64,000 nt of DNA from Verrucomicrobiia bacterium (GCA_036490295.1 DASXED010000126.1:1718-65717); one strand, 5' to 3'. Positions 11,947 to 33,800 are shown, counted from the first letter of the stretch. Notes: a model not told the origin generated them from the sequence alone. Numbers and translations are program-made.

Positions 11947-13137
11947 ATGAAAAAAACTTTTTTAAGCGGGACAATGGCATTCAGCCTGTTGGTGCTTTCA
12001 GCGACGGTTTCCCATGCTCAATCCACTTGGAACGGCGGCGGCGGCACAGACGGCAATTTTGGCACCGCCGCAAACTGGAACACACCGCCAACATCCAGTG
12101 CAGCCAACACTTTGGATTTTGCCGGAAGCGTCGGTCTAAACGCGACCAATAACATTACGCTGAACAGTGCCGACCAAACAATCAATTTCAACGCTGGCGC
12201 GTCCTCTTTCACCATCTGGCCATCAACTACTGCTAGTGCTTTTTACATAAGACTTGGAGGCGTGGCCAACAATTCTTCAGTGATCCAAACCATCATGCCA
12301 TCAACGGAAATAAACGGGACGCGAACTATTAACGTCGGAACTGCGGGACTCATATTGGGAGCACCCATTGGTTCCACCTCCACCAGCGGTCGCACTGCAA
12401 CCATAACTGGCACTGGCAACTTGATCATTCTCGGCGGCACTACAGTTTCAGGCGGTTCCAGCTATAATGTCACACAGGGCGGGCTGGTCTTTTCCAATGC
12501 GACTGCAGCCACTTTGGGCACCGGTGCCAACGGCGTGAGCCTGACTGCCAGCGGAACGACGCTTCAGTTTGACAATTCTGGAACACTTTCGATGAGCAAT
12601 GCTATTACCACAGTTGCCGGTTCGAGCATAACGCTTAACAACAGCGCAAACGTCGCCGTCACCAATGGAATCACGCTTACCGGAGCCAGTCTTACGGGAA
12701 CGGGCCATTTGATCAGCGCCGTTTCATCTGTAGGCGGCAGCATTGCTCCCGGTAATTCTGGAATTGGCACGATTTTCGTCACAAGCCTTTCGCTGGATGC
12801 AGCCTCGACAACGACAATGGAAATCAACCGCGCAGGCGAGAGTTCAGATTTGATTTCAGCCAGTGGCGCATTGACTTATGGCGGCACTTTGGACGTTGAT
12901 AACATTGGTGCGGCGCTTGAAGCGGGTGATTCTTTCGATTTGTTTAGCGGGACAATCAGCGGCACCTTTGCTTCAACAAGCCTGCCTTCACTTTCGGCCG
13001 GTTTGTCGTGGGATACCAGCCAACTCAACAGCGCGGGCATTATTGACGTCACGGCAGTTCCCGAACCCGCAACACTCGCGCTTCTCGGAATTGGCGGGCT
13101 TATGGCCGGCTGGCAGATCCGCCGCCGCAAAGCGTGA
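11947..13137 (+). CDS. PEP-CTERM-anchored secreted protein with autotransporter-associated beta-strand-like repeats
   Basis: Signal peptide 'MKKTFLSGTMAFSLLVLSATVSHA', 'WNGGGGTDGNFGTAANWN' repeat motifs, and a C-terminal 'VPEPATLALLGIGGLMAGWQIRRRKA' PEP-CTERM sorting signal. Confidence 0.85.
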   Translation: MKKTFLSGTMAFSLLVLSATVSHAQSTWNGGGGTDGNFGTAANWNTPPTSSAANTLDFAGSVGLNATNNITLNSADQTINFNAGASSFTIWPSTTASAFYIRLGGVANNSSVIQTIMPSTEINGTRTINVGTAGLILGAPIGSTSTSGRTATITGTGNLIILGGTTVSGGSSYNVTQGGLVFSNATAATLGTGANGVSLTASGTTLQFDNSGTLSMSNAITTVAGSSITLNNSANVAVTNGITLTGASLTGTGHLISAVSSVGGSIAPGNSGIGTIFVTSLSLDAASTTTMEINRAGESSDLISASGALTYGGTLDVDNIGAALEAGDSFDLFSGTISGTFASTSLPSLSAGLSWDTSQLNSAGIIDVTAVPEPATLALLGIGGLMAGWQIRRRKA

Positions 13138-25890: not shown

Positions 25891-26949
25891 TCATCTTTGC
25901 GGAATGATCCTGTCCGGATGCCGCGCGCGGCTGACCGCCGTGTCGTAGCTGATCTGGCATTTGCAATACAGGTCGTAAAGGCAATTGTCCATCAGCAGCA
26001 TTCCCTCCTTGCGCCCGGTCTGAATCGTGTTTTCCAAATGGTGAAGCTGGTTTTCCCGAATCTGGTTGCGGACGGCTCCGTTGGCGATCAGCAATTCATA
26101 GGCGAGAATCCGGCGCGACCTGTCCGCCGCCGGCAGCAAATCCTGCGAGATGATTCCCTGAAGCGCGTTGGCAAGTTGTAAAATAATCTGCCGCTGCGCG
26201 TTGCCGTCAAAAACGCCGATGATGCGCTCGACTGCGTGCGAGACGTTCGGCGAGTGCATCGTGGCGAGAACCAGATGGCCGGTTTCCGCCGCCGTCAACG
26301 CCGTGGAAATCGCCTCGTGATCGCGCATCTCGCCCACGACAATCACGTCGGGGTCCTGCCGCAAAACGTGGATGAGAGCGCGGTTGAACGAACGCACGTC
26401 CGTTAAAACTTCCTGCTGCACGACGATGGCGCGCTTGTTTTGGTGGACGAATTCAATCGGGTCTTCAATCGTGACGATTTTGCAGCGGCGCTCGCTGTTG
26501 ACGAGGTCAACGAGATAATTGAGCGTCGTGGTCTTGCCCGCGCCGGTCGGGCCGGTGATGAGGACGAGTCCATTCGGCTTGCGCGCGAGTTCCTCGATTT
26601 TTTTGGGAAGGCCAAGCTCGTCGCGCGTGGCGATTTTGTCGCCGCAAAAGCGGAAGCTCATTTCAGGATGCCCGTTGCGGCGGTAAAAAGTCATGCGGAC
26701 GCGCCCGGCCGCGCTGTGCAGCAGCGAAATGCAAAGCTCCCAATCCTGCTCGAATTTTTTCCTCTGCTGTTCGTTCAACAGGCTGTCCGTCATGGCCGTG
26801 ATGTCCTCGATGGTCAATGCGTCCTCATCCGCGATGATGATTTCTCCGTTGACGCGAAACGCGGGCGGAACGCCGGTCACGAGATGAAGGTCGGAGGCGT
26901 CAAAGTCATTGACGGCGGATAAAAGGCGGTCCAAAAGCGGCGTGCTCAT
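25891..26949 (-). CDS. PilT/PilU-family hexameric ATPase (352 aa)
   Basis: 'ASDLHLVTGVPPAFRVNG', Walker A 'GPTGAGKTT', 'IVTIEDPIEF', 'ALRQDPDVIVVGEMRD', 'TGHLVLATMHS'. Start at MSTPLLDRL (ATG at 26949; ATGA overlap with the TPR gene). The 445-aa track ORF is an N-terminal over-extension. Confidence 0.9.
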   Translation of the reverse strand: MSTPLLDRLLSAVNDFDASDLHLVTGVPPAFRVNGEIIIADEDALTIEDITAMTDSLLNEQQRKKFEQDWELCISLLHSAAGRVRMTFYRRNGHPEMSFRFCGDKIATRDELGLPKKIEELARKPNGLVLITGPTGAGKTTTLNYLVDLVNSERRCKIVTIEDPIEFVHQNKRAIVVQQEVLTDVRSFNRALIHVLRQDPDVIVVGEMRDHEAISTALTAAETGHLVLATMHSPNVSHAVERIIGVFDGNAQRQIILQLANALQGIISQDLLPAADRSRRILAYELLIANGAVRNQIRENQLHHLENTIQTGRKEGMLLMDNCLYDLYCKCQISYDTAVSRARHPDRIIPQR

Positions 26950-27725
26950 CGTTTGAAAAGTTGCCGCAACCAGTCGCGCGTGCGCGGCCAGAACCCGGCT
27001 TGGGAAAGCCGGACGAGCGCGAGGTCGGCTTCGCGGCAATTCCGGTTCAACTGCAACGCCTGTGTGAAAGAGGTCTCGGCGACGCTGACCAAACCGAGTG
27101 CCTGCTGGCATTGGCCGAGTTCGAGCCACAGCAGAAAATGGCCGGCGTTCCATTCGACGGCTTGTTGCAGCAATTTCAGCGCGAGCACAAATTGACTGTA
27201 ATAAAAACGGATGCGCGACGCCAGCCATGCCGTGAACCAGTCTTTTGGCGCGAGCAGCAGCGCTTTCTCAAAACAATAATCTGCGCGATGCTCTTTGCGC
27301 GCGAGCATCACGTCGCCGCGCGCGAGCCAGACGTAGGGCGTGTCGCCGCGCTCTTCAATCGAGGCGTCGGAAAATGCCAGCGCGCCCTGCAAGTCGCCGC
27401 TGCGCGCGAGGGCGACGGCTTTGGCGGCGAGCAATTCGGGATATTGCGGAAAGCGTTCCAGCGCCTTGTCCGCCCACAATTTTGCCTCGCGGAATTCTCC
27501 GAGTTCGACCAGCATCCGCACCTGCGCCGTCCACGCGGCGGCATTTTGCGGATTGTATTCCAGGACTTTCGAGTAAAAACGCAGCGCCTGCTCAAAGTCG
27601 CCGTTCTCAAACGCCGCGCGCGCCTCGCCGAAATAATAAGCCTCGTCCTTGGCCGGCAGTTTTTGTTCCTGCTGCCACTGGTCTTCGGACTCGCCGCCCA
27701 ATTCAAGATTTCCAAAACGGCTCAT
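26946..27725 (-). CDS. TPR-repeat protein
   Basis: Several TPR-like units ('AYYFGEARAAFENGDFEQALRFYSKVLEYNPQNAAAW...'). Start at MSRFGNLELGG (ATG at 27725; ATGA overlap with the upstream stop). Confidence 0.8.
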   Translation of the reverse strand: MSRFGNLELGGESEDQWQQEQKLPAKDEAYYFGEARAAFENGDFEQALRFYSKVLEYNPQNAAAWTAQVRMLVELGEFREAKLWADKALERFPQYPELLAAKAVALARSGDLQGALAFSDASIEERGDTPYVWLARGDVMLARKEHRADYCFEKALLLAPKDWFTAWLASRIRFYYSQFVLALKLLQQAVEWNAGHFLLWLELGQCQQALGLVSVAETSFTQALQLNRNCREADLALVRLSQAGFWPRTRDWLRQLFKR

Positions 27726-28609
27726 GGTAAAATTTGTTGCCGCCAGAACCAGTGTTTGAACGGTTTGCCGACAAATTGTTTTTCCGGAACATTTGCCATT
27801 TGCAGCATGGCGGATGAAATGTCCGCTTCGCCCACGTTCCAATTACCGCTTATGGCAATATTTGGCCAGATGAACCAGTGATTTTCCGGCACAAGCCAAT
27901 TTCCCGATGTCGGCATGTGCGGCAGAAGCGGCTGCGGAACGCCGTTCACGGTGAAACTATTCGTCGAAAATTCCACGCGGTCGCCGGCCATTGCCAGCAC
28001 CGGACCCAAGCCCAAACTGGTCCGGTTCAAAACGCCATTGCCTCTGTGGTTTGAAAAATAATATCCTGAAAGCCTGTAAGCGACCCGGTCGCCGCGTTTG
28101 ATGTCATGAGCCGGAACGAATTTTTCAACGATGACTGCATGGCCGTTCACGCGCAGAGGCAGCAGCCAGTGTGTCCGCAGCGGCGTATAAAGGAACAAGC
28201 CCAAAACCAACATCGCTCCGATTGTAAAAAGAATGCGGGATTGAAATGGTTCATGGTTCAGCCACGGGCTGCAATAATAAACCAGGCCGGTGACATGAAT
28301 CGAAAGCAAAAGTCCGAACGCGTAATTGCCAACTGGATAGCCGAGCCAGACAATGAAGCAAAGGAAAAGCAGCGCGCACGCGGCCAGCGCGGCCTTTCCG
28401 TAAAGTCGCGGGCCGCGAAGATAAACCGCAAGGCCGGGAACCAAAACGCCTCCGACGAGTCCGCCGACCGTGATTTCATTTGGAAGACGAATGCGATCCA
28501 GCGCAAGCCCGTGGCGCACCGCAGAGCCAAGATAAAAAATGCGGGCATACCATCGCGCGCGACGCGGATAGTAGGGCGAAGTCATTTTTTCGCTGGAGTT
28601 CAACGCCAT
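27722..28609 (-). CDS. Polytopic membrane protein with a C-terminal signal-peptidase-I-like (S26/S24 fold) domain, copy 1
   Basis: Four or five TM helices, then 'IKRGDRVAY...GPVLAMAGDRVEF..FTVNGVP...VPENHWFIWPN...VPEKQFVGKPF'. This follows the S26 sequence pattern, but I see no SM/K catalytic dyad. Confidence 0.5.
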   Translation of the reverse strand: MALNSSEKMTSPYYPRRARWYARIFYLGSAVRHGLALDRIRLPNEITVGGLVGGVLVPGLAVYLRGPRLYGKAALAACALLFLCFIVWLGYPVGNYAFGLLLSIHVTGLVYYCSPWLNHEPFQSRILFTIGAMLVLGLFLYTPLRTHWLLPLRVNGHAVIVEKFVPAHDIKRGDRVAYRLSGYYFSNHRGNGVLNRTSLGLGPVLAMAGDRVEFSTNSFTVNGVPQPLLPHMPTSGNWLVPENHWFIWPNIAISGNWNVGEADISSAMLQMANVPEKQFVGKPFKHWFWRQQILP

Positions 28610-28659
28610 TGGTCAATGTTGTAATGCGCCGCCAATCCAAGATTTCCAAAACGGTTCAT
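28600..28659 (-). pseudogene. Chimeric duplication-junction ORF (TPR-gene 5' end fused to DUF2997-gene 3' end)
   Basis: Translates to MNRFGNLGLAAHYNIDQWR*. The first 7 codons match the TPR start MSRFGNLELGG (27725 downward). The last codons match the end of the DUF2997 gene '..RYNIDQRH*' (29548-29588). The ATGA overlap with the upstream stop is retained. Confidence 0.65.
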
Positions 28660-29501
28660 GGTAAAATTTGTTTCCGAAAAAACCATCGTTTGAACGGGCG
28701 TCCGACAAATTCCTCGCGCGACACAATCGTCGGCACAATCGTCATTTGCTGGGTGACATCGCCTTGGGTTGCAAAGATTCCAAACGTTGCAAAGATTCCA
28801 AACCCTTCATGTCTATAATATCTGGAAAACTGCGCCCGCATGAGCCAGTGCTTTTCCGGCACGTCCACGGAATCCACATGGTCGCCGCCAAGCCCGATCA
28901 CGGGACCGAGAATAAACCCGGCATCCTTCACTTCATGGCCGCCGAAGCTGGCGGAACTTCTAAACGCCGCCCAATCGCCGAGCTTGAGCGAATCCGGCGT
29001 TGTCCTGACTGAAACAACTATCACGCGATCGCCCACGCGCAACGGCATCAGCCAGTGATTTTGAATTGTGCCGCGCAGTGGCGTGTAAATTGCCAGACCC
29101 AAAATCAGCATCGTTCCGACGGTAAAAAGAATCCGGTAACGAAACGGCTCATGGTTCAGCCACGGGCTGCAATAATAAACCAGACCCGTGGTGTGAATCG
29201 AAAGCATCAGGCCGAACGCAAGGTTCGCGGCGGGATAACCGAGCCATACGATGAAAATGGTCAACAGCAGCGCGCAACCGGCCATCGCCATCTTTCCCCA
29301 AAGTCGCGGCCCGCGAAGATAAACCGCCAGGCCGGGAATCAAAATGCCGCCAATAAGCCCGCCGATGGTAATTTCTTTTGGCAAACAAATGCGATCCAGC
29401 GCGAGCCGGTGGCGCACCGCGAGTCCCAAATAAAAAACGCGGCAATACCATCGCGCGCGGCGCGGATAGTAAGGCGAGTTAAATTTTTCGCTGGAGTTCA
29501 A
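28656..29501 (-). CDS. Polytopic membrane protein with a degenerate S26-like C-terminal domain, copy 2 (tandem paralog)
   Basis: The N-terminal roughly 150 aa are almost colinear with copy 1 ('SPYYPRRARWY..FYLG.AVRH.LALDRI.LP.EIT.GGL.GG.L.PGLAVYLRGPRL'). The C-terminal domain has diverged. The apparent start is TTG at 29501. Confidence 0.5.
   Translation of the reverse strand: MNSSEKFNSPYYPRRARWYCRVFYLGLAVRHRLALDRICLPKEITIGGLIGGILIPGLAVYLRGPRLWGKMAMAGCALLLTIFIVWLGYPAANLAFGLMLSIHTTGLVYYCSPWLNHEPFRYRILFTVGTMLILGLAIYTPLRGTIQNHWLMPLRVGDRVIVVSVRTTPDSLKLGDWAAFRSSASFGGHEVKDAGFILGPVIGLGGDHVDSVDVPEKHWLMRAQFSRYYRHEGFGIFATFGIFATQGDVTQQMTIVPTIVSREEFVGRPFKRWFFRKQILP
28768..28803. repeat. Perfect 18-bp tandem duplication inside paralog copy 2
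   Basis: GTTGCAAAGATTCCAAAC x2 (28768-28785 and 28786-28803). It is in frame and gives 'FGIFATFGIFAT'. Confidence 0.9.
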
Positions 29502-29547
29502 GCTTCAGCCTGTTTGTTTCGGACAAGCTGAAGCTTGGACTCCGGCT

Positions 29548-29748
29548 TCAATGCCGCTGGTCAATGTTGTAACGCACCACTTCTTCCGGCTCATAAAATT
29601 CGCCCGTCTTCTGTTCTGATTTCAGTTCGCCGACGATCTGCTCGAACATTTTCATCGCTTCGAGGCAGCCCTTGCCTTTGTAGCCCTTGACGTGCAACTC
29701 CACGCTGCCGTCCTTGCCGATGGTGATGTCAAATTCGCGCTGGGGCAT
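29548..29748 (-). CDS. DUF2997-like small protein (66 aa)
   Basis: 'MPQREFDITIGKDGSVELHVKGYKGKGCLEAMKMFEQIVGELKSEQKTGEFYEPEE' matches my recollection of the DUF2997 pattern (I-x-x-DG-x-V-x-x-x-V-x-G-x-x-G-x-x-C ... T-x-E-Y). Confidence 0.55.
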   Translation of the reverse strand: MPQREFDITIGKDGSVELHVKGYKGKGCLEAMKMFEQIVGELKSEQKTGEFYEPEEVVRYNIDQRH

Positions 29749-29910
29749 AAAATTAGTTTTGAAAACTGATCTCTGGATAATGTTTGGATAAAAAGTGGCG
29801 GCATGAACTGCGATTACCCGGACAAATATGCTTCGAAAGCTGGCGCGCGTGTTCAACAAAATCCGCTGGCGACGCGCCAGCCTTGATGAGGCGAGAAATG
29901 CAAGTAGGCA

Positions 29911-30312
29911 TCATGGCTTGGCCTTTTGTAAAACCATGTCCTTATCTATACCATCCCACCTCACAACCAAATCATCATTGTTCAAACTAACAATGCGCCC
30001 ATGCAAGCCGTGCGCCATCAATGTCGCGTTTGTCCGGCTGTCGTTTGTAACCGTGATAATCAAATCTCCATCTTTGGCCAGCAATGTCCCTTCTTCTTTG
30101 ACCGTAATGCCATTCGTGAGGCCGGTAATCTCGAAATCGAAGTTGCCGGATGGACTCACAGCTCTCGTGCTTCGGAAACTGTCGCCCTTCTCAACCCATG
30201 TCCCTGTCAATTGCCGCTGAATCTTTGCATCGCTGCGACCGCATCCCGTCAATAGCAAACCCAAGAATATAAATATGAAACAGTTGAATGTTGAATGTTC
30301 GATGTTTTGCAT
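29911..30312 (-). CDS. Lipoprotein, function unknown (133 aa)
   Basis: Lipobox 'LLLTGCG'. The gene is more AT-rich than its neighbours and lies 4 nt downstream of the DUF1257-like stop. Confidence 0.6.
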   Translation of the reverse strand: MQNIEHSTFNCFIFIFLGLLLTGCGRSDAKIQRQLTGTWVEKGDSFRSTRAVSPSGNFDFEITGLTNGITVKEEGTLLAKDGDLIITVTNDSRTNATLMAHGLHGRIVSLNNDDLVVRWDGIDKDMVLQKAKP

Positions 30313-30316
30313 AATT

Positions 30317-30790
30317 TCAATTCTCCCAATGCCGGACTTTCAACCGTATCGAACGGTCTTGATTTGTTTCTTCCTCGACGACGTTGAATCCTTTTGCCCG
30401 CATCTCATCCATCAGCTTTTGATAAACATATTTTTGGACGACGCACTGGCTCATTTCCTCGCCCATCGCTCGCAACTCATCATTGCTGTGGCCGTTGCCC
30501 GTCACGCAGAGCGCCGCCTTGCCGCGCGCGTCGCGCGAAAACGTGATGGTCACGCCGTCGCGCGTCACGGCAATGCGCTGTTCGCGGCCAAGCTGGTTCG
30601 TGACGACCTCGCTGTTCTCGATTTCAAGCTGAACCTTGTTGGAACTTTTCTCCGCAACCGCATTTTTGGTCAGATCAGCGGCTTCAGTGGCAATTTGATA
30701 GCCGAGCGACGCCGATGCCGCCACTACCGCCGCGCTGAAGGCCGGCCACGCCGCGATCACCACCGGAGTCAATATGCAGACACAGCTCAT
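30317..30790 (-). CDS. DUF1257 (Ycf35)-like protein with an added N-terminal hydrophobic segment
   Basis: The C-terminus 'VVQKYVYQKLMDEMRAKGFNVVEEETNQDRSIRLKVRHWE' resembles the DUF1257 C-terminal signature. The N-terminus 'MSCVCILTPVVIAAWPAFSAAVVAASASL' is hydrophobic. ATGA overlap with the upstream gene. Confidence 0.5.
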   Translation of the reverse strand: MSCVCILTPVVIAAWPAFSAAVVAASASLGYQIATEAADLTKNAVAEKSSNKVQLEIENSEVVTNQLGREQRIAVTRDGVTITFSRDARGKAALCVTGNGHSNDELRAMGEEMSQCVVQKYVYQKLMDEMRAKGFNVVEEETNQDRSIRLKVRHWEN

Positions 30791-31101
30791 CTTTTGCTTT
30801 TGTTCACCAGTTTTGACCGGGCTTTGCGGATTTCGTCACGCGACATTTCCTGCCGCTGGAATTTGTTCCTGCGCCGCGCCCGCGTCTTGCGGATTGCCCG
30901 CCAAACCAGCGCAATGATGAGAATGCCAACTCCCGGCAGCACCTGTAGAAAATATGCCTGGATATTGGAATCGTCGATCATTCCACAAACGCCCGCCACC
31001 AAAACGATCAAAATGAGCGAGGCAAAAAATGTGGCGAAAAAAAGAAACGCGTAACGGCGGTCTTTGAAACTGTCATACAAATTGCTCCAGATTGAATTCA
31101 T
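30787..31101 (-). CDS. Small two-TM membrane protein with a basic C-terminal tail
   Basis: 'YAFLFFATFFASLILIVLVAGV' and 'VLPGVGILIIALVW' helices, then 'RKTRARRRNKFQRQEMSRDEIRKARSKL'. The ATG at 31101 is preferred over the TTG at 31116. Confidence 0.5.
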   Translation of the reverse strand: MNSIWSNLYDSFKDRRYAFLFFATFFASLILIVLVAGVCGMIDDSNIQAYFLQVLPGVGILIIALVWRAIRKTRARRRNKFQRQEMSRDEIRKARSKLVNKSKR

Positions 31102-31112
31102 CGGGTATTCAG

Positions 31113-32678
31113 TCAAAATTCCATCCGCCGCACGGTGTCGCCTTTCTTGGCGTCGCGCGCCACACTGGCGTTGCGCGCGCGGCCTTCGGCCCAGCTTCGC
31201 AGCCGGTTGATTTGTTCGTCCATCGTTTTGGCCAGCGGCACGGTTTGCGACAATGCCGTTTTCACATCGTCCATCGTCATTTCCTGCTTGGCGTAAAAAG
31301 CGTCGTAAAGCGCGCTGTTGATCGCCTCCTCGATTTCCGCGCCGCTGAATTCCGCGCTGCCATTCGCCAAAGTTTCCAAATCAAACTTCGTCGCGTCGCG
31401 CTTGCGCTTCGTGATGTGAATCCGAAAAATTTCCTTCCGCTCTTCGGGACTCGGCAAATCCACGAAGAAAATTTCGTCCAATCGTCCTTTGCGCAGCAAT
31501 TCCGGCGGCAGTTGCGAAATGTCATTCGCCGTCGCCACGACAAAAACCGGCGCGGTTTTTTCCGAAAGCCACGTCAGAAAAGTTCCGAACACGCGCGCCG
31601 TCGTGCCGCCGTCCGTCGAGCCGGAGCCTTGCGAACCCGCGAACGCCTTGTCAATTTCGTCCACCCACAAAATCGCGGGCGCGACCGATTCCGCCACCGC
31701 AATCGCACGGCGCACATTTTCTTCCGACGAACCGACCAGGCTGCCGAACATCCGCCCCATGTCGAACCGCAGCAGCGGCAATTGCCACAAGTTTGAAACC
31801 GCCTTCGCGCACAAACTTTTTCCGCAGCCTTGCACGCCGAGCATCAAAATTCCTTTCGGAAACGGCAGGCCGAACGCGCGCGCCTCGTTCGTGAACGCGA
31901 TGGAACGTTTGCCCAGCCAGTCTTTCAGCACGCTCATGCCGCCGACATTCGTGAAGCTTTCATCCGTCGCGTAATACTCCAGCAGGCCGCTTTTGCGGAT
32001 GATCTGCTGTTTCTCGGCAAAAACGTCGTTCACGTCCTCGGCGCTCAACCGCTCATCCTTCACGATGATTTTTGCGAAAACATTTTCCGCCTCGCCGAGC
32101 GTCAGGCCGAGCGCGGCTTGCAGCAACCGTTCGCGCCCCGCGTCGTCCAATTCGATTTTCACCTGATGAAACTGCTTCACGTCAGCGATGATTTTGTCGA
32201 GCAACACGGCGAGGTCGTCGCGCGACGGCAGCGGATGATTGAGCAGCGTGATTTCCTTTTCCAATTCCGTCGGGATTTCCATCACGGGCGAGACCAGCAC
32301 GATGGTCTTGAAACTGTTCTTCAAGTGCAGCGCGATCTCCTTGAGCTTGCGCGTCACGGCAAAATTATTTTTCGTCAGGAACGGGTGAAAATCCTTGAAA
32401 ATGAAAATCGCCGGCTCGACCTGCTCGATGACCTGATCCAGCGCCATCAACGGGTCTTTCGTCGCCGCGTTGCGATGCTTTTGCGACTGGATGGAAGTCC
32501 CCGCCGGCACGATGCCCGTGCTGTAACTCCACTCAAAAACTTTTTTCTGGCGCTTCTGCGCGATCTCGACGATCAGGCTTTGGACGCGCGACTCCTCGCT
32601 GCTCAAAATGTAAAGGATCGGATAGCGCGCGCGGATGAGCGTTTCGAGTTCGGTTTGGAAATTTACGATTGTTTGCAT
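31113..32678 (-). CDS. AAA+ ATPase, Ycf46-like (single AAA module with a long N-terminal domain)
   Basis: Walker A '[14 protein letters not shown]', Walker B '[11 protein letters not shown]', '[29 protein letters not shown]'. The N-terminus '[13 protein letters not shown]' is typical of the Ycf46 group. Confidence 0.9.
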
Positions 32679-32863
32679 ATTTTTTGACCCGAGTTTCGCC
32701 GGCTGCCAATTCCTGCGCGCTGGCGCATCAATTTATCCTCTGGATTCAATTCCGACAACAATTTGGCCATCGTCGGCGTGATATTTTGCGCGAGGATTCT
32801 GCCGTCTGGCAAAATAAGCAATTCGGACAAACCGATTTCAGCCTCACGATGTTTGTTTTTCAT
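32663..32863 (-). CDS. Hypothetical small protein (66 aa)
   Basis: ORF only. It fills the gap between the 318-aa gene and the AAA+ gene and overlaps both (by 20 nt and 16 nt). Confidence 0.35.
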   Translation of the reverse strand: MKNKHREAEIGLSELLILPDGRILAQNITPTMAKLLSELNPEDKLMRQRAGIGSRRNSGQKICKQS

Positions 32864-33800
32864 ACTTTATTCCCAAGCTCTTATTTTTGGCCTCAACTTC
32901 TTCTTCGGTCATCCAAGCCAAGCCTGCATAAGTAGGATGTCCGCTGTAAGGGAGATTAAGGCGATACCGCGTGTCGGTAATGCGCGTTTTCTTCGTTAGT
33001 TCCGGCACAAATGAAAAGTTTTGCAAAGGATGAACAGCCTGAATCTTGGCCTCAACTGTATAACTTACGGTGCACTTGGCTTCGCCCCCTACCGGCCAGT
33101 TGGGGCCAAACACCGTTAATTTGAAACCACTTGGCATACGCATTTTGGAAAAACTGATCCAATCTGTCGTTTCAAAATTGGCATGAAGAAAACCAGCATC
33201 AAATGGCGGCGGATATTTTTTCAGCCGACTACCACCTTCGTTCACATGGAGATATATGCCTTCGGAATGCCAGGCTATTTCGCTGATGAAATTTGAGTCA
33301 TTTAGTTTCCATTTGGCGGGCAAAGACAACGTCGTCGGAACGGCATCGAGAAAAGAATTAATTATGATAAACAGTGGAGCGGCGATTCGATTGTCCTTCC
33401 GAGAAAGAAAGTAGCTGGACGAGCAATAGGCAATCCAGAGCGGATAGATAAAATCTAAATTCAAACCCACGAGCGCATTGCCATGTCGCACTCGGCCTTG
33501 AGCAGTGAGAATGTCTTTAACATTGGAAAATTCCGGGTTGTTTTCGTCAAAACTTTTTAGTTCATAAATTGTCGCTCCATCACAGCCCATCTCATCATAT
33601 TTAATGCCATTTGCAACCTCATCCTCATGGAGATTTGTCGTCCGAATTTTCCACTGCTGTCCTTTTCTGGCGACGACGAAGTGTCTTGAATGTTTAACCT
33701 GTTCTGTCCCGAACTGGCTGCGACATTCAGTCAAATAAACAATGTTCCCTTCCATTTGGAACTCTGGCTCGTAGCCGTTGGTTTGATTTGGAATTTTCAT
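32844..33800 (-). CDS. Hypothetical protein (318 aa), no recognisable domain
   Basis: Long ORF in a visibly AT-richer segment. ATGA overlap with the radical SAM stop. No signal peptide or TM helix obvious. Confidence 0.6.
   Translation of the reverse strand: MKIPNQTNGYEPEFQMEGNIVYLTECRSQFGTEQVKHSRHFVVARKGQQWKIRTTNLHEDEVANGIKYDEMGCDGATIYELKSFDENNPEFSNVKDILTAQGRVRHGNALVGLNLDFIYPLWIAYCSSSYFLSRKDNRIAAPLFIIINSFLDAVPTTLSLPAKWKLNDSNFISEIAWHSEGIYLHVNEGGSRLKKYPPPFDAGFLHANFETTDWISFSKMRMPSGFKLTVFGPNWPVGGEAKCTVSYTVEAKIQAVHPLQNFSFVPELTKKTRITDTRYRLNLPYSGHPTYAGLAWMTEEEVEAKNKSLGIKYEKQTS

Follow-up and report, generated by a model that had tools for sequence, protein, structure and literature searches.

The stretch of DNA considered here, called the window in its full length of 64,000 nucleotides (nt), originates from a Verrucomicrobiia bacterium (GCA_036490295.1 DASXED010000126.1:1718-65717) and contains, between a gene for a DUF2997 protein and a gene for a TPR protein, two adjacent genes for membrane proteins with an S26-like C-terminal domain. 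In all likelihood, these genes constitute an old pair of tandem paralogues representing two distinct gene types, the outcome of ordinary gene-family history rather than of a recent event. All coordinates given below are positions in the whole window, and the genes of this region are all located on the minus strand. The first of the two to be transcribed is copy 2 (28656-29501), the short paralogue, which starts at a TTG codon and encodes a protein of 281 amino acids (aa) with a polytopic membrane N-terminal half and a reduced S26-like C-terminal domain; the gene calls of JGI agree with this start, which was also proposed in the initial annotation of the sequence, and with this length. It is followed by copy 1 (27722-28609), the long paralogue, which starts at an ATG codon and encodes 295 aa with four to five membrane helices and a C-terminal domain of predicted S26 fold.

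The two copies are colinear and arranged head to tail. Three direct repeats connect them, with offsets of 934 nt (27698-27777 vs. 28632-28711, 85% identity), 898 nt (28176-28603 vs. 29074-29501, 79-82%), and 948 nt (28599-28630 vs. 29547-29578, 84%). In a local alignment, the copies form one colinear chain of 806 aligned nt with 82% identity and offsets going from 934 to 898 nt, and the encoded proteins align over their full length with 50% identity (E = 2e-90). This similarity is far above chance. Thus, the tandem duplication of a segment reaching from the DUF2997 tail to the TPR start, as proposed in the initial annotation, is borne out by the colinear repeats and the full-length protein alignment.

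The junction between the copies, designated J1, has the composition expected of such a duplication. On the minus strand, its DNA reads ...CAAATTTTACCATGAACCGTTTTGGAAATCTTGGATTGGCGGCGCATTACAACATTGACCAATGGCGTTGAACTCC..., i.e., a TPR start followed by a DUF2997 tail, with the TPR-start remnant at approximately 28627-28659 and the DUF2997-tail remnant at approximately 28600-28630. Its sources are the start of the TPR gene, with ~10 codons here and as many as ~19 in related loci, and the last ~9 codons of the DUF2997 gene (RYNIDQRH*). An open reading frame (ORF) of 19 codons at 28600-28659 spans the junction and encodes MNRFGNLGLAAHYNIDQWR*; it begins with an ATG that shares bases with the stop codon of copy 2 (ATGA) and ends in a TGA that overlaps the copy 1 start. 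The chimeric nature of the junction was therefore correctly recognized earlier, and the two TPR-type ATGs at 27725 and 28659 are both present. The recurrence of the DUF2997 tail is real as well (the sequence TGGTCAATGTTGTAACGCACC is present), but the position originally given for it was 10 nt off: it is located at 29558-29578 and not at 29568-29588.

That the assembler wrongly expanded a repeat can practically be dismissed as an explanation. The window comes from a metagenome-assembled genome (MAG), where such errors happen, and nothing else was found in favor of it. The copies differ at ~18% of the alignable bases and cannot be aligned over ~350 nt, and they are, therefore, not one sequence assembled twice. 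A separately catalogued JGI contig, Ga0376660_0002536, contains both genes as well and is identical to the window at 12,888 of 12,888 compared bases; it possibly goes back to the same reads. The same arrangement recurs in the closest relative, L156, which stems from a different sample, in L076, and in more than 10 further contigs from other samples.

A survey of 156 related loci from species-representative genomes and metagenomes, in which the flanking operon is strongly conserved, places the pair in a wider context. A long gene alone is the most frequent state (125 loci), followed by the short-long order of the window (13 loci) and the long-short order (seven loci); in addition, a short gene alone is found, with full flanks on both sides, in L089, L101, L158, L161, and L162.

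In the initial annotation, the duplication was considered recent and taken as evidence of gene-dosage or neofunctionalization dynamics; in this view, it would still be near its origin and reflect current changes in gene dosage. Several observations contradict this view. Between the copies, the number of synonymous substitutions per site (dS) is 0.59-0.68 in the 5' half and 1.11-1.17 in the 3' half (0.59 and 1.11, respectively, in the window), although estimates above 1, and those for a domain with a non-synonymous value (dN) of 0.6, are unreliable; the dN between the copies of the window in the 3' half is 0.61. These values exceed the dS of 0.22-0.31 between the orthologues of the window and L156. 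Both copies are under purifying selection, with dN/dS ratios (omega) relative to L156 of 0.35 for copy 2 and 0.19 for copy 1, as compared to 0.14 for the TPR gene. Furthermore, each copy has closer orthologues elsewhere. Among the 601 homologues of copy 1 that were found, hundreds show 55-84% identity, and copy 2 has orthologues of its own, of 257-271 aa and with 55-79% identity, whereas the C-terminal domains of copies 1 and 2 are only 36% identical. In an alignment, the family separates into two subfamilies, the short one of which, containing copy 2, shares a deletion of ~23 residues and other diagnostic residues. Identity in the C-terminal domain is 31-44% between the short and long types and 52-84% within the short type, and the split between the types in this domain was recovered in 199 of 200 bootstraps.

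Also the junction is not private to the lineage of the window. The scar of the window, L156, and L076 is the same one, shortened by an in-frame deletion in its interior, whilst the homologues of J1 in L083, L087, L090, L092, and L095 are longer (30-33 codons) and comprise ~19 TPR and ~9 DUF2997 codons, e.g., MSRFGNLEFVGESEDWLQQQPPDAPRCNFDPWH*. The AAA ATPase encoded in L083 is only 78% identical to that of the window, as compared to up to 98% in long-only relatives. Since J1 is common to loci that are so far apart, the array appears to predate these lineages, and the short gene appears to have been lost repeatedly.

A recent duplication would be in line with the high nt identity (79-85%) of the 5' half and the unit ends, with a junction that is still recognizable, and with the absence of copy 2 from the closest long-only relatives. 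However, the parts with high identity are the conserved membrane half and a conserved C-terminal motif, which are alike in all members of the family. Considering also the difference between the dS separating the copies and that separating the window from its closest relative, the low identity of the C-terminal domains, the separate orthologue families, and the sharing of the junction by distant lineages, a recent origin is highly improbable. As to gene dosage, one copy is, by its sequence, no substitute for the other; a split into two functions is plausible, though as an ancient event rather than a current one.

The two halves of copy 2 have different histories. Whereas its C-terminal domain groups with the short type, its N-terminal half is 75% identical to that of the long genes of the window's clade vs. 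61% to that of distant short genes (bootstrap 1.000), and the split between short and long types was found in none of 200 bootstraps for this half. In a sliding-window comparison, the switch in copy 2 is located near residue 145-150, where the last membrane helix ends. This position fits the pattern at the nucleotide level, i.e., ~80% identity to copy 1 over 29073-29501 and poor alignment below. The conflicting, well-supported trees for the two gene halves show that recombination or gene conversion with a long gene later replaced the 5' half of copy 2. The tract concerned, which is of the local long type, would cover 29060-29501, with the inner boundary being approximate, and copy 2 carries a hairpin-type upstream region together with the first few codons of the long type. 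For the window and L156, the identity in the 5' half is the same within a genome (0.79 and 0.77) as across the genomes (0.80 and 0.76). The exchange is, therefore, older than the separation of the window from L156, and ongoing gene conversion between the copies since that separation is ruled out.

The array has been remodeled on other occasions as well. In the long-short loci L004, L077, L078, L081, and L097, the junction consists of TPR codons 1-10 followed by ~9 nt from upstream of the gene start. As it differs from J1, at least two duplication events must be assumed. In its upstream region and up to codon ~20, the single gene of L103 is 92-93% identical to the short gene of L095 and, from there on, 90-93% identical to the long gene of L095. 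To judge from these sequences, it would be the expected product of unequal crossing-over in the conserved segment encoding YYPPRARWY. A clean breakpoint was found only in this comparison of L103 with L095; the nearest single-copy relatives of the window, L093, L001, and L003, were considered as clean collapsed arrays as well, but this was not borne out, since their informative sites are mixed. Two further loci have unusual arrangements. In L049 (5001-5895), the long gene is present in three frame-shifted pieces beside an intact short gene, representing either a pseudogene or indel errors in long reads. In another lineage, on the contig carrying P0161, gene calls alone indicate a short gene (246 aa), a gene of 272 aa, an ORF of 29 aa, and then the TPR gene, i.e., with a small ORF between the second copy and the TPR gene.

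Together, these data suggest the following course of events. A single ancestral gene for a polytopic membrane protein whose S26 domain was of periplasmic type and catalytically dead would have been duplicated in tandem, as the junction indicates. The duplicated segment would have extended from the last ~9 DUF2997 codons through the first ~19 TPR codons, leaving J1 as a scar, within which the intergenic hairpin discussed below would later have been lost. The C-terminal domains have since become two distinct types, the long one of copy 1 and the short one of copy 2, and the conserved 5' half encoding the membrane part has been exchanged between short and long genes. The array also keeps changing: unequal crossing-over within the conserved 5' part reduces it to one gene, and a further duplication, the breakpoints of which were different, gave rise to the long-short arrays; most lineages now have a single gene. 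The closest known systems of this kind are tandem paralogues with partial concerted evolution, in which gene conversion is confined to a conserved part of the gene and arrays expand or collapse by unequal crossing-over. In keeping with them, there is domain-wise phylogenetic incongruence here, a chimeric single-copy gene with a clear crossover, and a pair of junction scars from two separate duplications. Nothing is unusual in comparison, except, slightly, how long the scar has stayed recognizable here.

Some points weigh against this reconstruction. Besides the unreliability of the largest dS estimates mentioned above, the trees were constructed by neighbor joining on ~140 columns. For the clade to which the window belongs, informative sites are mixed within the 5' half, with no single clean crossover, and they fix neither the direction nor the number of exchanges. 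Moreover, the short type could have arisen in a lineage of its own and have been joined to a long gene later. This leads to an alternative in which the array never contained identical copies but was joined from short and long single genes that had already diverged in different lineages. Unequal or illegitimate recombination between a short-type and a long-type operon, such as might follow DNA uptake, would have produced the junction at one stroke. Loci with a short gene alone and full flanks do exist in several lineages, and the short C-terminal domain is found paired with several unrelated 5' ends and upstream regions. Also the patchy distribution of short genes, with relatives whose AAA ATPase is 98% identical having the long gene only, would fit, and the neighboring genes are conserved enough for homologous recombination across lineages. 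However, the topology of the junction is exactly that expected of an in-place tandem duplication, and short-only genes can equally well be explained as collapsed long-short arrays, a collapse that is seen in L103. Assembly from diverged genes is, thus, rather unlikely, and duplication in place, followed by divergence and exchange, is the preferred explanation.

Upstream of copy 2, a hairpin (29490-29546) is located between the DUF2997 gene and the first S26-like gene; the arms of this inverted repeat comprise 24 nt and are 88% complementary, and the 3' arm contains the TTG start of copy 2. As was noted earlier, it is missing upstream of copy 1, where this region has no counterpart. The hairpin is also present in many single-copy loci, and it was found, besides in the window, in L003, L011, L016, L021, L037, L076, L093, L096, L113, L116, L117, and L139. 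It is, therefore, neither specific to the lineage of the window nor special to copy 2, a possibility that was considered and rejected, and it is probably ancestral. Its lower stem of 12 bp is conserved in 18 sequences and shows G-U changes as well as two compensatory pairs, whilst the loop is variable. Possibly, it serves in translational control or as a processing site. A search of the region against Rfam gave no match to the hairpin and nothing else of relevance.

The loss of the hairpin was previously thought to have created the ATG start of copy 1. This is correct insofar as the loss placed the remnant of the DUF2997 tail beside the reading frame, but the ATG itself has another origin. At the corresponding site, the DUF2997 gene reads CAGCGGCATTGA, as compared to CAATGGCGTTGA in the junction of the window and CCATGGCATTGA in that of other loci, which indicates that the start codon, inside the DUF2997-tail remnant, arose by substitutions.

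In other loci, a well-conserved spacer of 50 nt (CATTGACCGGCGGGCAAATCTCAAACTGGCGGCGCATGAAC) is found in the place of the hairpin upstream of the first S26-like gene (L083, L095, L077, L006, L100, L103, and L109), and the short genes of L083-L095 carry this 50-nt region instead of the hairpin type. This type-B spacer resembles the TPR start (P = 0.003-0.09) and the long-short junction (P < 0.001), although part of this similarity is due to the start region that they share. Conceivably, it is the scar of a still older duplication, although this is a lead only.

The ORF spanning J1 was described in the initial annotation as preserved. The ORF exists, but its preservation by selection is unproven. 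With its start on the stop codon of copy 2 and its end on the start codon of copy 1, it may hand ribosomes on from the upstream gene to the downstream one. Translational coupling is known from overlapping stop and start codons (ATGA), and here the copy 2 stop and ORF start, the ORF stop and copy 1 start, and the copy 1 stop and TPR start all overlap; a relay through a mini-ORF derived from a scar differs from such coupling in being a hypothesis that gains no statistical support from the present data. Alternatively, selection could act on a micropeptide that keeps the motif found at the N-terminus of the TPR protein. There, ~16 residues, MSRFxNLE[LF]G[GD]ESEDQ (27678-27725; N-terminal peptide MSRFGNLELGGESEDQ), are nearly invariant in 123 distinct loci, and, as third codon positions vary, the constraint acts on the peptide. 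A similar sequence, M-S/N-R-F-x-N-L-E-F, is kept in the older group of J1 junctions.

Other features of the junctions would also fit with selection of one kind or the other. Of 17 distinct double-copy loci, 13 have an ORF beginning on the stop codon of the first gene and ending in an overlap with a candidate start of the second; junction lengths vary from 28 to 215 nt. Insertions and deletions in J1 keep the frame, at 19, 30, 32, and 33 codons. Junctions also evolve more slowly than four-fold degenerate sites, with nucleotide identities of 0.70-0.87 vs. 0.39-0.75 in 20 of 21 pairs, and, according to the gene calls, neighboring genes overlap by 4 nt at most junctions of the operon.

However, frames of this length are expected to be open by chance. 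Shuffled junctions stayed open with P = 0.28-0.92 (0.55 for the window), only junctions of 60 and 37 codons being suggestive (P = 0.046 and 0.066, respectively), and our combination of the shuffle P values by Fisher's method was not significant. Furthermore, J1 variants with early stop codons exist in L085 and L160, 14 and 44 nt, respectively, before the start of the second gene, and the peptide changes freely among close relatives (MNRFGNLGL.. vs. MSRFEKSEL..), with no conservation between the window and L156. The conservation of the junctions is in part explained by overlapping stop and start contexts or by gene conversion from the parental sequences. The shuffles offered no statistical support for selection on the ORF, and the addition of loci yielded two counter-examples, L085 and L160.

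Because of the shuffles, the early stops, and the unconserved peptide, preservation of the ORF is treated here as unproven, and the ORF may well be a by-product of the scar. That it is a selected element, whether as a relay coupling the downstream copy or as a micropeptide, is a minor possibility, and a function in ribosome relay, to which the overlapping codons point, is possible with a similarly low probability. If such a relay existed, the mini-ORF would set the ratio of the two paralogues. Actual co-option of the scar, with the mini-ORF being kept for termination and re-initiation or for its TPR-motif micropeptide, is unlikely; if true, it would mean that the junction of a segmental duplication had become a regulatory element, and one that divergent Verrucomicrobia lineages have conserved.

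As to the proteins themselves, the AlphaFold model of copy 1 (pLDDT 83) combines a beta domain with four to five membrane helices. With this model, Foldseek retrieved type I signal peptidases, i.e., SpsB (E = 1e-5), EF3073, LepB, and the enzyme of Bacillus anthracis, at E values of 1e-5 to 0.1. In a Pfam search, copy 1 scored 22.5 bits for Peptidase_S26 (PF10502), just under the cut-off of 22.9, and copy 2 gave no match; among NCBIfam models, none matched the S26-like proteins. The column of the catalytic lysine (YVKRVIGVPGD in SpsB) is occupied by an invariant glycine in the family, and the serine of SMxPT aligns with a tryptophan, the latter alignment being weaker. According to the models, the C-terminal domain thus has the S26 fold without the Ser/Lys dyad. 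With type I signal peptidases (MEROPS S26; LepB, SpsB), the family shares this fold, the GD-containing boxes C and D, which align, and the anchoring of the domain in the membrane, but it differs from them in lacking Lys and Ser at the catalytic columns and in the number of membrane helices, which is four to five here and one or two in those enzymes. In the short type, a beta-hairpin of ~23 residues that is present in the long type is absent, and the model of copy 2 (pLDDT 75) shows a reduced beta domain.

One loop of this model is poorly predicted and of low confidence. It contains a perfect, in-frame tandem repeat of 18 nt (28768-28803; GTTGCAAAGATTCCAAAC twice, 100% identical, encoding GFGIFAT twice), which is absent from L156. 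This repeat is the only truly recent duplication of the region.

When a profile of the family was used, the best matches in the PDB were SipA and LepA of Streptococcus pyogenes (PDB 4n31 and 4k8w; E = 0.01 and 0.11, respectively), which are weak matches. As far as is known, SipA lacks the catalytic residues. Hence, an S26 fold without them is found on both sides, and both are encoded near genes for surface appendages, in the present case a PilT-family ATPase. SipA has been described as a signal-peptidase-like protein that is essential for pilus polymerization (PMC4049620). By analogy, the S26-like proteins could have a chaperone role. However, SipA belongs to the sortase pili of Gram-positive bacteria, whereas the family described here is encoded in a Verrucomicrobia operon with genes for an AAA ATPase, DUF1257, DUF2997, TPR, and PilT proteins. 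Reasoning from the same likeness, the probable role of the two S26-like proteins in this block is that of non-catalytic binding subunits that differ in their partner specificity.

In the order of transcription, this part of the window contains genes for an AAA ATPase, a small membrane protein, a DUF1257 protein, a 133-aa ORF, a DUF2997 protein, copy 2, copy 1, a TPR protein, and a PilT/PilU-family ATPase. The AAA ATPase gene (31113-32678) is the first of these, and the DUF1257 gene is located at 30317-30790. The DUF2997 gene (29548-29748) was identified by its match to Pfam PF11211 (E = 8.7e-14). Downstream of the S26-like genes, the TPR gene (26946-27725), matching Pfam TPR families, overlaps with its start the stop codon of copy 1 (ATGA). 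The gene for the PilT/PilU-family ATPase (25891-26949; TIGR01420, 380 bits vs. a cut-off of 319) overlaps the stop codon of the TPR gene and closes the block; it follows the TPR gene in nearly all related loci.

The conserved block (AAA ATPase, small membrane protein, DUF1257, DUF2997, S26-like, TPR, and PilT-family ATPase; 25891-33800 in the window) is found in loci L001-L155 in MAGs of Verrucomicrobiota/Limisphaerales. The slot between the DUF1257 and DUF2997 genes (29749-30316 in the window) ranges from ~5 nt to ~1.8 kb among loci and contains unrelated genes, such as the 133-aa lipoprotein-like ORF in the window and a peroxiredoxin-like gene in L160. Genes for DUF2997 and DUF1257 (Ycf35) are also neighbors in cyanobacteria (PMC4284462), and the literature on these two families yielded only such mentions of cyanobacterial gene clusters. 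A PADLOC analysis of the region gave no match to a defense system except for a generic similarity to AAA proteins.

The history of this locus teaches that high identity at the ends of a repeat and in one of its halves can reflect constraint and later exchange rather than youth. The locus is a natural example of the evolution of a tandem pair, in which domain-wise divergence, exchange of the 5' part, chimeric collapse, and a second duplication are legible from the scars. It also draws attention to a so far undescribed protein family, signal-peptidase-like but polytopic and catalytically dead, that evolves much faster than its neighbors in the block; at 98% identity between the AAA ATPases, the S26-like proteins share only 77%. 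The short and long types, as putative specificity variants, would be a useful handle for studying this conserved block of the Verrucomicrobia.

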